Assembly (NCBI RefSeq): GCF_002571385.2
Contig: NW_019217784.1
Coordinates: forward strand, 541,613-605,612
DNA length: 64,000 bases
Reading direction: 5' to 3'
From: Stylophora pistillata
Taxonomy: Eukaryota
Shown here: positions 18,512 to 39,359 of the stretch, one piece after another
How positions within the stretch are numbered: position 1 is the stretch's first letter
Layout of the letters: every line of letters starts with the position of its first letter
The notes under the pieces: generated by a model
Database searches by the model: none
Told to the model about the DNA's origin: nothing
What the model saw: only the letters and a program-made list of their open reading frames with translations
Program-made: the position numbers and the translations under genes

Positions 18512-21500
18512 ATGGCTAAACATACATCTGATGACATATCTATGAAGTTTTGGCTTCGGGCGGAATCGAAACCGCATGAACAACGCACTCCACTAACACC
18601 AGTCACTTGCAAAAAGCTACTATCAGCCGGTAAGTGTTCTTGAACTTTATTTACCGAGCGCGCAGTTAGTTCTGGCGTTTGTACATTCATGGTTGATTTA
18701 CCCAGTCAGTATGTATTGTACAAGCCTGTTCTACTATGATGAGATTTTAAGACTAGCTACAATGTTTTTCCTCTTTTTTTTCTTTTTTTGCGGCTTTTGC
18801 GAATTACAGTGGGTCTATCCAATACTCGCTCGTATATCGAGTTATTTGCAAATTATGCCCAAGGGAGTCGTAGTTCTTGTTGAATTTATTTCAAAATGCT
18901 TATTTTTGCCAGTCAAAATGTTCACCAAATACTATTCATGTATTAAGCGATTCTTACGAGATCCACGTATCCGAGGTCGACGTTTTTGCGAATTTTTTTA
19001 ATTTAAAACGCTCAACTTGCTATGTCGCTAGGCGTAGACTCGACGCCATGTAAAAGAGACGATAAGCAGGTGCAATATATTTTCGAGAAAGGAATGATTT
19101 TGTTTTGCAATTTTGTTACAAAGGCGAAATGAAGTTATTTGGCTCAAATTCAGCAGGAGAGCTACTTTGGTCGAAGGATCGAGGTTTTGAGCTACTACCA
19201 CGTGTAACAAGTCTGAGCTGTTGAGGTGCTCACGAAATCATTCATATACTAGTCTACATACTACGAGTTTTTACTCGAGGAACACGAGATTATAGGAATC
19301 GTACAGTAAAAGAAGAAAATATTTGAGATCGTGCTTTGGAAAGAATGATAAGCTCGATCATAGGAATTGCATAGACCATAACACCTCAGTTCTTATTCTG
19401 TAAATGAGAGAACACGATCCTTGACCTTGGACAGCCAAATAATTATGTTATTCTTGGTGGCTTAAACACAATAATAGCCGTTTGGATTTCTAGTAAGATC
19501 TAAGCGCAATACTGTTCAGCAATTGTAAATAATGATTAAAACCAAGTTATATTTCATGAAGTAATTACTATGCAGAACAAGAGCTTGAGTGCTCAAGCGA
19601 AGAATGATATAGGTTTGATATTGAAATGGTAATCTCTAGTGCGAAACGCAACTTAAGAAGGAATGCCGAGGTATTTGTTATTTGTTACCAGTATTAAGTA
19701 AAGACTAGATCATCAATGCCAAGTAGATTAAAAAAAAAACATAACAATAAGGAGCATTGGAATCATCTGGTACCTTTATTGACATTATTGTGCCAGTTGT
19801 TTTTTTCAAATATTTTAATTTTGGTCGATGAAAGCAAATTATTATGCATAGTTGCTAGGTGATGAAACATCACCCCAGAATAAATGCTGTAGGTGGCAGA
19901 AAAATGTCAATAAAGGTTGCTCTTTATGAGAATGCTGCCTTAGTTATAAATAATGATGCATTTGTTCAGTTTTTCAGAAACAGGAAGTTTCTGTATGTTA
20001 TTTTGAGGTAGCCTACTCCGTCCTTTGAAACTTAATTCCCTCTGTACAAAAATGCTTTAAAGAATAAAGTGGCCATAGTCAAAGCACTGCTTCAAACTTT
20101 TGAACAAAGGGACAGTGACACTGAAATTCTCTGGAAGCTGTGCACAAGTACAACTAGGAAAAAAAGGAGATCATGAAACTTTGAATTGACATGTTTCTGC
20201 CAACCTTGTAAAATGATGTGTAATTTGTCTGTAGAAATATTTCCCTATTGGCATCTCTTGTGGTCCATAAGACTGACTGATTCTTGTTCAAGCAACTTTT
20301 GATGATTATTAATTCTTTAGTTTTCAGCAGGTTATTTTATTGTTCCAATGTTTGGTCAAATACCTCAAAATGTAATGTTAACAAGTTACAGGCAGTGCAG
20401 AACTTCGCATGCCGCATTGTTAGCGGTGCGCGTAAATTTGACCGCGTTACACCAATTCGCAAGGAACTAAATTGGCTTTCAGTTCAAAGCCAGCTTTTCT
20501 ACCGGAACGCTACTATGGCTTTTAGATGCATGACTGGTCAGGCCCCAGAATACCTCTCATCAAAATTCATAAAGCGAGCCGAGGTTAGTCGACGTAGCAC
20601 CAGAAATTCGCAGCTTTTGCAAATTCCATTCTTTAGAACAGCTAGCGGTCAGAGAACATTTTTCTATAGAACTGTAAACTTATGGAATTCTTTGGATAAT
20701 TCCTTTAAACTGTGCAACTCCGTTAATGTTTTTAAAAAACGTTTAAGGACCAAATTACTCAAAGAGTTGTAATTTTACATATATATTTGTATACTTTTAT
20801 TTTTCTTTTAGAACATTCAGATTTTAAAACATTTTTAATTGTAAATAGGATTTTTTAATTGTAATAGGAATATTTTTATAACATTGTCTTTGAAAAGCCT
20901 CCTTGGGGAAAGTCAATAAAGTATGTATGTAAGTATGTATCTAAACAATTTATTGTTACTAACACTGTTTTGTGTTTTTCTGTTCAAAGGTCACCAGGTT
21001 TTTGTGGAAAAGTCAAAAGACCGAGTTTACAAAGAAGTTGATTATGAAAGGTTGTAGATGAAGATTGAATATTGAAAAAGAAAAAAAACTAACACAAAAT
21101 TTGATAAGACATTGCCAAGTTGAAATTTTCATGTTTAGCTTGCAAGTTTTGGAATTTTAAAGATTTCTTTTGTGGACCTGGAATCCTGAAGATATTGATA
21201 GCTTTCAAAAATGTACTTAAAAGTGATGTACATTTTTGTCTTTCATGTAGGGTTGGTTGTAAAATTGTTGAAGAGGGAAGTTGGTCCGATGCTCCTACAG
21301 ATGCTTACATTGTGGGAATCAAGGAATTGCCAAATGAGGATCGTCCTCTGAAACATCCTCACATTTACTTTGGCCATGCCTTTAAAGTGAGAAATTAATT
21401 TTTTTTTGTCTTTTAACTTCGAATCATTTACATACTATTGGTGAAAAATGCATTTTTTTTTTTTTTTTTTGTGAAGTGATCACAGAGTTGACCAACAGCC

Positions 21501-37600: not shown

Positions 37601-39359
37601 ACTGAAGAATTCTTTGATTTTTTTATTGGCCCATCTACTTAAAAACTTTTTCCAACTTTTATGATTAACCCTTGACACTCTAACATCATTATGCATATTC
37701 TCCTTACTGTCCTCTCTACATTTCCAAAGGTGCAGACAAGGAGAATTAATTTAACAATCAAGATCTGCTTTAGTTGGTGATCATTTCCTTTNNNNNNNNN
37801 NNNNNNNNNNNNNNNNNNNNNNNNNNNNNNNNNNNNNNNNNNNNNNNNNNNNNNNNNNNNNNNNNNNNNNNNNNNNNNNNNNNNNNNNNNNNNNNNNNNN
37901 NNNNNNNNNNNNNNNNNNNNNNNNNNNNNNNNNNNNNNNNNNNNNNNNNNNNNNNNNNNNNNNNNNNNNNNNNNNNNNCCCCTGGGGTGGGATGGGTGGG
38001 AATTGGCCCTGAAAAGCCCCTATGGGGAGTGGTCAACTAACCTATGTATGTATGTATGTATGTAATTCAGGGGTAATATTATAAGAAGAAATTGAACTGT
38101 CAGGGTTTTTCAGCAACTCAGTAGTACCCCTACTCTTTTGTACTCCTAGGTGGAGAGAGGAATGGCCGGATTTTAAGTACACGTTTCACCAAAACACAAC
38201 TGCCACAGCCAGGGCTCAAATCTCAATCTTGACCTGGAATCTGGTCCCTTAAAGCAATTCACTGTGTTGTTTTATTTCCAGGAACCTGAGTGTGGTGGTT
38301 GATGTGAGCTGTGATCCTAATAATCCATACAACCCTTTGCCTTTCTACCATGCAACAACTTCATTTGATAAGCCCTGTGACAGAATAAGGCTTAGGTAAG
38401 TCATTGGTTCCTTATTTAACTTTTTTTGTATAACCTAAACAGTGGCTAATATGAATTTAAAAAAGGACAGGACAAAAAAAAAGGGTAGAAAGGTTTCAGG
38501 CCATTTTTGCACATGCCCAATTGTAACTGTGGTTTTCAGAATGTCTTTTTTTTTTTTCTTGTAAGAAACATACTTGCCTGTGATTAAGTAATTCTTTCTG
38601 TTAAATGGAAACGTTCCTGAATCACATAAAACTATCTGTGGTAATTTTATTATTTGGTAACGATAAGACTTTATCATCTGTGTTGTCTTGATGCCATACA
38701 CTGATTGGCTCGGTTCAAATTTTGTGGTGTCATTGTTCATTTCTTTTAGTGGGATTTGTCAGTTTTGTGTAAGTGACCCCATTAACAGTTTTTGCTTTGT
38801 TAAAATATCTTGTGTAATTTGGAAATTTATTGTTTTATATTATTTTTTCTAATTTTTCCCTTTTCAGATCTGCTAAGAAACTTGATGTCATAGCTATAGA
38901 TCACTTGCCTTCTGCTTTACCCCGTGAAAGTAGTCAGAGATTTGCCAATAAGATGACACCTTATTTGCTGAGATTAAGCGATGTATGTATATGCAACAAC
39001 TCACTGTTTATTTTATCAATCTTGGTGGTAAAATAAGGTACCTGGTAGGTTGCTTGTATCCCCTCCTGATACCACCCCTGTAGAATTACAGTTTGGCTTC
39101 ATATACCTTGCACTTCCCTAAAATCTTCAAATCTGAACCTCCTCCCTTCCCCCTACCTCCCCCCCTGGAATTTTCAATAACTTCTCTTAAGAGTGATGTG
39201 GCTATTTCCTTTAACTACACAATAATTACCTTCAGATTTATTAAAAGCATGAATTTTTTCTTTGAATTTTAGGATCCTGTTTGGAACAGAACCAAGAACA
39301 TGTTTGATAAAAAAGCTATGGAAGCAATGGCAATTTTGAATTCTGGCTTCCTTCATTGA
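31621..39359 (+). CDS. LYS1: Saccharopine dehydrogenase (NAD+, L-lysine-forming, Lys1-type), paralogue B, 382 aa
   Basis: 12 exons: 31621-31732, 33294-33354, 33474-33612, 34326-34413, 35023-35110, 35188-35285, 35725-35821, 36494-36596, 37486-37532, 38282-38395, 38868-38982, 39273-39359 (1149 nt, open, all GT-AG). Motifs LLRAETKPNEQR, GLKELP, FAHAYK, DIEF, VIGALGRCGRGA, EWDMEET..GGPF, DVSCD, AIDHLPSALPRE, PVW. Confidence 0.93.
32090..32504. mobile_element. Palindromic foldback MITE in intron 1 of paralogue B
   Basis: Arms of ~200 bp (GGGGCCCATACAA...TGTAGCCGACTG...TTTACCTGTGGTGTATAGTCGTCCTT) inverted around a short spacer near 32295-32315. Confidence 0.8.
34047..34262. mobile_element. piggyBac-like MITE (related copies at ~23711-23885 and ~37665-37790)
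   Basis: Degenerate TTAA|CCC...GGG|TTAA-type ends and a shared internal GACCAAGACAGAA.TTCTCCTTACAATATC motif in the 23.8 and 34.1 kb copies. The 37.7 kb copy is more diverged. Confidence 0.55.

Follow-up and report, generated by a model that had tools for sequence, protein, structure and literature searches.

Two tandem Lys1-type saccharopine dehydrogenase genes in the coral Stylophora pistillata, one with a predicted NADPH-type cofactor site

Introduction

Why should a stony coral carry genes of the Lys1 family? Database labels call such genes NAD+, lysine-forming saccharopine dehydrogenases, which may suggest that corals finish lysine synthesis. We analysed a stretch of 64,000 nucleotides of the Stylophora pistillata genome (NW_019217784.1; hereafter the window, to which all coordinates refer unless a contig is named) in which two Lys1-type genes, A (18512–29959) and B (31621–39359), lie in tandem on the + strand. 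The pair is real, ancient and expressed, and nothing found here points to lysine prototrophy. The surprise lies rather in the retention of the Lys1 family in Cnidaria and in a predicted, convergent NADPH switch in copy A. No study of cnidarian Lys1-type genes was found in the literature searched, most subscription journals lying outside the search; PMC2481427 and PMC12268173 add nothing on such genes. Papers are cited by PMC number throughout.

Results

Gene structure and expression

The genes were read exon by exon. Both follow a 12-exon plan, with 11 GT-AG introns whose phases match between them. The coding exons of A lie at 18512–18629, 20990–21050, 21251–21386, 24902–24989, 26469–26556 and 27062–27159 (exons 1–6) and at 28177–28279, 28368–28414, 28527–28640, 28984–29101 and 29804–29959 (exons 8–12), exon 7 being absent from the window; RNA splice joints and the database proteins P0328 and P0340 supported this model. 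Those of B lie at 31621–31732, 33294–33354, 33474–33612, 34326–34413, 35023–35110 and 35188–35285 (exons 1–6) and at 35725–35821, 36494–36596, 37486–37532, 38282–38395, 38868–38982 and 39273–39359 (exons 7–12). Exon lengths in A and B are, in nucleotides, 118/112, 61/61, 136/139, 88/88, 88/88 and 98/98 for exons 1–6, and absent/97, 103/103, 47/47, 114/114, 118/115 and 156/87 for exons 7–12. An earlier, sequence-only reading of this DNA had described two stand-alone Lys1-type paralogues with introns in the same phases, seven exons of exactly equal length (61, 88, 88, 98, 103, 47 and 114 nt), diverged proteins and no evident intron similarity, and our analysis bears it out on each of these points. 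The proteins are 47.7% identical (166 of 348 residues compared), and blastn of the gene regions revealed no intron homology, its three matches being a common repeat, one exon edge and a short 63-nt match.

The 382-residue product of B matches database protein P0304 exactly and transcript-derived P0002 almost exactly, and 29 RNA reads cross the splice between exons 1 and 2. A run of N at 37792–37978, in intron 9 of B, leaves the coding exons untouched. A transcribed part of the 3' untranslated region of A extends over 30055–30480 on the + strand (read depth, with an RNA contig to 30333). Each gene closes with its own stop codon, with no fusion to an SDH domain. Contamination as the source of the pair was rejected on the strength of the 11 introns, the coral neighbours and the orthologues in named corals. 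NCBI assigns the matching proteins to Stylophora pistillata, and coral samples are among the sequencing runs that contain this DNA.

Several other transcripts and models were noted. P0001 and similar transcript proteins skip exon 6 of B and end early in another frame (35110–35725), and several short members of this kind fall in one cluster with P0001. Between the genes (30594–31734, + strand), a GT-AG joint was seen at 30594–30899 and one RNA contig spans 30899–31734, which suggests either read-through or that B has a long leader upstream. Six database models, from Porites, Pocillopora and Oculina, fuse A to B. A fusion protein was rejected, since the linkers of these models, 32–43 residues in length, are unlike one another and no joint from the A coding exons into B is listed in three RNA runs; the models are treated as prediction artefacts or rare read-through.

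Gene A is intact

The window letters as they stand produce a frameshift in A. The missing exon, counterpart of the 97-nt exon 7 of B and of a further paralogue, D (see below), carries the nucleotide-binding glycine loop; it was found in no frame of 27150–28190, and a search with this exon of an A orthologue gave no match elsewhere in the assembly. A single N stands at 27295. In two runs, DNA contigs agree with the window up to 27294 and then continue with other letters, while other contigs enter at 27296 out of letters unlike those of the window. Because contigs diverge from the window on both sides, this N marks an assembly join. RNA evidence was drawn from two raw runs, about 2 in 100 of the reads of each. 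Position 27160 was joined to 28174 with other letters between by 12 and 12 reads in the two runs and by one RNA contig; on either side, loose read ends (7 and 23 reads; 43 and 54 reads) give, in translation, the two margins of exon 7. Four downstream introns of A are spliced, with 21–57 reads each. Transcript-derived P0340, which agrees with A at 267 of 271 residues, includes exon 7. With the exon held by both RNA reads and P0340, gene A is intact, and its product is 407 residues long once exon 7 is restored.

A broken copy, stripped of its nucleotide-binding exon, might have been read from the absence of exon 7 from the window and the whole assembly, and from the database models of A made from that assembly (P0328, P0225), which are truncated or patched. 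The RNA reads, P0340 and the join marked by the DNA contigs refute this idea, orthologues are intact in Pocillopora, Porites and Oculina, and we give it a negligible chance. Thirteen variant alleles, drawn from 40 of 661 and 40 of 115 variant rows, could be placed in A exons; 10 are synonymous, compared with 22% of all possible changes. The silent and neutrally evolving copy that the earlier reading had allowed for is not what was found, as both genes are expressed.

Protein family and termini

B matches yeast Lys1 with an E-value of 1.8e-100, compared with 1.3e-10 for the LKR domain of human AASS and 1.6e-4 for alanine dehydrogenase. With a structure model of P0331, the Pocillopora orthologue of A (mean predicted local distance difference test score, pLDDT, 86.8), six yeast Lys1 entries rank first (template-modelling score, TM, 0.81–0.86; 44–45% identity) and LKR next (0.63–0.71; 19–20%). 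Cut-offs of the alanine dehydrogenase and transhydrogenase alpha models were not reached (TIGR00518, 47 bits vs 392; PRK09424, 29 vs 383), Octopine_DH (PF02317) was absent from the Pfam matches of P0331 and P0304 and had no match in the window, and Atlas searches returned Lys1-family clusters only. A and B are stand-alone, two-lobed proteins of the AlaDH/PNT fold, closest to yeast Lys1 and, as proposed earlier, not members of the AASS LKR or alanine dehydrogenase groups.

Inspection of the termini revealed neither a long N-terminal extension nor a peroxisomal-type C-terminus in A or B, and both proteins are likely to be cytosolic. The last exon of A (29804–29959, + strand) encodes a C-terminal tail, RKES followed by an acidic, serine-rich end, that is kept in A orthologues and disordered in the P0331 model; this tail presumably resembles a kinase site. 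Lys1-type proteins of the jellyfish clade (P0386, P0400, P0229 and P0241) have, unlike the coral copies, basic N-terminal extensions of 63–80 residues, possibly for mitochondrial targeting.

Substrate residues and the cofactor site

Residues were numbered as in yeast Lys1, by counting on its alignment with B. Gene B keeps K13, E16, R18, K77, E78, H96, K99, Q101, E122, R131, D227, D281 and D319, and gene A keeps the same set except D227; the sequence-only reading had already listed R18, K77, E78, H96, K99, E122 and R131 in both. The arginines and the lysine that bind the substrate are named in PMC13763937. None of the contacts to lysine and 2-oxoglutarate given there is missing from A or B, and lysine and 2-oxoglutarate are probably the substrates of both.

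The exception, D227, concerns the cofactor. In exon 8 of A (28177–28279, + strand), Trp-Thr-Arg aligns without gaps with Trp226-Asp227-Ile228 of yeast Lys1, and the glycine loop has Gly-Asn in A compared with Ala-Leu in yeast. Position 227 is changed in all nine A-clade rows (Thr in five, Ser in three, Arg in one), position 228 is Arg in all nine, and in those rows that include it the glycine loop has small polar residues. Asp227 is kept in 10 of 10 B rows and in 242 of 249 non-cnidarian rows, and a single one of the 249 has Thr-Arg at 227–228. In the P0331 model, strand two of the nucleotide-binding lobe ends just before the threonine, and a helix begins at the arginine. In human AASS, Ser266 and Arg267 occupy the place of the yeast aspartate and account for the use of NADPH, which pushes the reaction toward saccharopine (PMC9490328); these two residues and Thr224 of the glycine loop touch the 2'-phosphate (PMC13763937). 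Stylophora AASS has Ser-Arg at the same site, and A alone of the pair has, by sequence and secondary-structure position, the Ser/Thr-Arg 2'-phosphate signature of AASS LKR. Judged from these residues, A quite likely prefers NADPH, while B is predicted by its Asp227 to be of NAD(H) type. A is a Lys1-family protein that, lacking Asp227, should not be filed as EC 1.5.1.7. In trees (see below) A has a long stem (0.42–0.54) and short tips, the pattern that a shift in function and subsequent constraint would leave. Across corals A is as conserved as B (80–86% and 78–82%, respectively).

Further paralogues and ancestry

Two more paralogues, C and D, were located on the + strand elsewhere in the assembly (G000:C342:2700-28021). 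D has the 12-exon plan of A and B, with an exon 7 of 97 nt. Both have lost substrate-binding residues: Cys replaces Arg131 in 5 of 5 C rows, and in D Asn or Asp replaces Lys99 (4 of 5 rows) and Asn replaces His320 (5 of 5). In this assembly C has Gln at the position of catalytic His96, Arg in the glycine loop and Asn at 227. Two of its exons were not located, runs of N standing there, and C may be damaged or mis-assembled here.

By consecutive identifiers, A, B, C and D are adjacent in Oculina patagonica (ACROYT_G013174-177) and Porites harrisoni (KAM7432199-202); B, C and D occur together in the deep-water coral Desmophyllum pertusum. Its presence in both Oculina and Porites makes the four-gene array older than the split between complex and robust corals, on the assignment of these corals to the two lineages that we assume. 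Acropora and Montipora have B-type proteins only, among the matches listed. Relatives were found in Nematostella, Actinia, Actinostola, Aurelia, Rhopilema and Sanderia, and a representative search (17 of 150 matches) gained one anemone row. No named sponge or bilaterian protein appeared among the best 120 of 3154 and the best 120 of 2851 matches, many rows of which are unnamed. Lys1-type proteins are present in choanoflagellate, Capsaspora/filasterean and Corallochytrium-type/pluriformean relatives.

Two trees were built without AASS rows, a quick one of 61 rows with support from the SH-like approximate likelihood ratio test (SH) only, and a careful one of 32 rows under LG+G4. Cnidarian rows form one clade in both (SH 99 and 91/94, respectively), and a one-residue insertion after Arg131 is found in 43 of 43 cnidarian rows, compared with 5 of 249 others. 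B, C, D and anemone rows cluster without A (100/98). A clade of A and B alone was rejected by the approximately unbiased (AU) test (p-AU 0.025), and a single clade of all stony-coral copies was not (p-AU 0.078). A groups with jellyfish rows in the 32-row tree (90/85), which may be long-branch attraction. The old, retained duplication proposed by the sequence-only reading is therefore upheld by the trees and by the array in other corals, but its simple pair gives way to a set of four paralogues in which A and B are not each other's nearest relatives. Bacterial Lys1-like rows form a separate group and, with bacteria as the assumed outgroup, the cnidarian clade sits among eukaryotes. On a simple reading, the gene probably descended from unicellular ancestors; Cnidaria then probably retained it once the upstream part of lysine synthesis had gone, with an expansion in stony corals.

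Lysine pathway genes

A full AASS gene, combining LKR and SDH parts with a basic, presequence-like N-terminus, lies on G000:C385. Exon-wise profile searches of the draft assembly, with translations interpreted by eye, found none of Lys20, Lys4, Lys12 and Lys2. The homocitrate synthase model (TIGR02146) matched only a bacterial isopropylmalate-synthase-like contig and pyruvate carboxylase; the homoaconitase model (TIGR00139), an aconitase exon only; the isopropylmalate/homoisocitrate dehydrogenase model (TIGR02088), three IDH3-like loci and two bacterial contigs; and the aminoadipate reductase model (TIGR03443), adenylation enzymes only, at 25–35 bits against a cut-off of 1030. A search with PF03435 for a separate Lys9 gave one weak match only. 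These negatives accord with the loss of LYS4 and LYS20 in animals (PMC4339202), and AASS has been treated as the animal remnant of the lysine pathway (PMC4303824).

Several loci met in these searches deserve mention. The best adenylation match (G000:C390:176000-199650, − strand) is an intron-containing, non-ribosomal peptide synthetase-like gene with adenylation, carrier and reductase domains. It is not Lys2 by score and lacks the N-terminal domain and pocket motif expected of that enzyme, and we take it to resemble glycine-betaine-reductase-type enzymes. The octopine dehydrogenase family (PF02317) has 16 matches at about ten loci in the genome, on G000:C38, C56, C355, C619, C12 and C1304, and these are candidates for the coral strombine dehydrogenase. 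Small intron-less contigs (G000:C3908, C3682, C3149 and C3261) bear bacterial-looking pntA, leuA and isocitrate dehydrogenase genes and are likely assembly contaminants.

Neighbouring features in the window

A 205-residue open frame at 6543–7160 (− strand), 11 kb upstream of A, matches Pfam Ectoine_synth above the cut-off (E 2.6e-15) and solved ectoine synthases (E 4e-8). This is the sole such match in the genome, and the frame is a candidate EctC-like gene in a coral. Also on the − strand are pieces of a CTHRC1 C-terminal domain (904–1254), a rhodopsin-family receptor (8182–11141) and a Mab-21-like domain (41084–41620). Remnants of long terminal repeat retrotransposons, in pieces (integrase, DUF1759, zinc knuckle, reverse transcriptase), lie at 15303–17030 (− strand) and 48275–56699 (+ strand). 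Further single Ns stand at 7963, 17286, 22794, 42973, 59715 and 61500. Should these be joins like that at 27295, the window lacks further sequence, and the N at 42973 might account for C and D not following B here.

Discussion

From the gene structures, expression, family, residue changes, the array in other corals and the presence of AASS, we infer cofactor preference, substrates, direction and compartment for the pair. Our account, to which we give a probability of about 0.55, is that A is an NADPH-driven saccharopine former and B an NAD(H) enzyme, and that the two take part in an extramitochondrial exchange beside AASS. In the cytosol, A would convert lysine and 2-oxoglutarate to saccharopine with NADPH, and B could turn saccharopine back to lysine. 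Together they would exchange lysine and saccharopine outside the mitochondrion, beside a degradative, mitochondrial-type AASS, and lysine and 2-oxoglutarate would be reversibly stored, or drained off, as saccharopine. In a cell making both enzymes, reducing power would on balance pass from NADPH to NADH. The suggestion in the sequence-only reading that the host regenerates lysine from saccharopine is thus plausible for B only, the NADPH-type signature of A pointing the opposite way. That reading had missed the absence of exon 7 from A, paralogues C and D, and the changed cofactor site. A wider and more doubtful proposal is that stony corals derived a four-gene toolkit from a relic fungal-type lysine enzyme, in which a cytosolic A/B cycle would serve as a soluble transhydrogenase and lysine store and C and D would make undescribed opines.

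Several points weigh against this account. Saccharopine formation is also within reach of an NAD(H) enzyme like B, and the direction of B is therefore not fixed; a cycle would moreover require A and B in the same cells. The compartment suggested for both rests on a simple look at their termini. The number 227 for the NAD-selecting aspartate of yeast is our own alignment count and, in part, our assumption; pocilloporid C also lacks Asp227, yet has no Arg, and the site can drift. Among the best 120 of 2851 matches, Acropora and Montipora contributed no A orthologue, and the pair is therefore not universal in corals. No holozoan, fungal or other eukaryotic group is supported as sister to the cnidarian clade, which leaves vertical descent unproven. 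Finally, the absence of the pathway rests on exon-wise searches, and a PF05222 search of this kind also missed A and B.

It is also conceivable, though unlikely, that A and B act on a different amine or keto acid, whether as sinks in fermentation or to make specialised metabolites, and handle opine-like compounds other than saccharopine. Saccharopine is itself chemically an opine, and Lactococcus has what we take to be an NADPH-dependent carboxyethyl-ornithine synthase of the same fold family. The losses in C (Arg131) and D (Lys99, His320) imply that the family is exploring substrates in corals, and corals under nightly hypoxia ferment to strombine (PMC7669893). However, A and B retain every lysine and 2-oxoglutarate contact listed in PMC13763937, the genome already holds about ten loci of the octopine dehydrogenase family, and an NADPH enzyme could not regenerate NAD+ for glycolysis. 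The opine-like condensations raised by the sequence-only reading are a better fit for C and D than for the tandem pair.

Less likely still is salvage, in which aminoadipate semialdehyde from pipecolate, diet or symbionts would be converted to saccharopine by the SDH part of AASS running in reverse, and then to lysine by B, with A regulatory or minor. A route from pipecolate to lysine is known in some fungi. B has an NAD(H) site and all catalytic residues, the SDH domain is present, and every coral family named among the matches listed, acroporids included, has the B copy. Salvage nonetheless leaves the conserved switch in A unexplained; the presequence-like N-terminus of AASS, with none in B, would place its steps in different compartments; and no Lys2 to supply the semialdehyde was found in the exon-wise search. 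De novo synthesis by the alpha-aminoadipate pathway, with A or B as the last step, would fit their family and the Lys1-type proteins of choanoflagellate, filasterean and pluriformean relatives. Models for Lys20, Lys4, Lys12 and Lys2 gave only other enzymes or bacterial contigs, the coral has a normal AASS, and animals have lost LYS4 and LYS20 (PMC4339202). Such synthesis is very unlikely, and any tie of the sequence-only reading to it is unsupported.

The pair can be set beside known systems. With yeast Lys1 the coral proteins share a stand-alone form, the fold (TM 0.81–0.86 and 44–45% identity for the A orthologue), the catalytic and substrate residues and, in B, the NAD-selecting aspartate. 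They differ from it in having four paralogues, an insertion after Arg131, no upstream pathway found, no aspartate in A and, whereas yeast Lys1 is peroxisome-targeted, no peroxisomal-type C-terminus. With the LKR/LOR activity of animal AASS (EC 1.5.1.8), A has in common Ser/Thr-Arg at the 2'-phosphate site and the predicted reaction and direction, but identity is about 20%, and AASS is fused to SDH, tetrameric and mitochondrial. Because the coral has its own AASS, the NADPH signature of A would have arisen independently, on a Lys1 background. Stand-alone bacterial LKR/Lys1-like proteins and the Lactococcus N5-(carboxyethyl)ornithine synthase, which we take to form saccharopine or a related opine, are likewise single-domain enzymes of the AlaDH/PNT family; the bacterial rows fall in a separate tree group, the coral genes have 11 introns, and the Lactococcus enzyme is likened here by description. 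SCCPDH (saccharopine dehydrogenase-like oxidoreductase) shares only the name and belongs to a different family. A link to symbiocytes was accordingly set aside, as the "saccharopine dehydrogenase" marker in PMC12019164 is SCCPDH and says nothing on A or B.

If the account given here is correct, A would represent a convergent change of cofactor in a scaffold apparently lost from most animals, within a family kept in both main lineages of stony corals, including deep-water Desmophyllum with its B, C and D. It would then bear on how corals supply themselves with lysine, handle nitrogen and balance redox.

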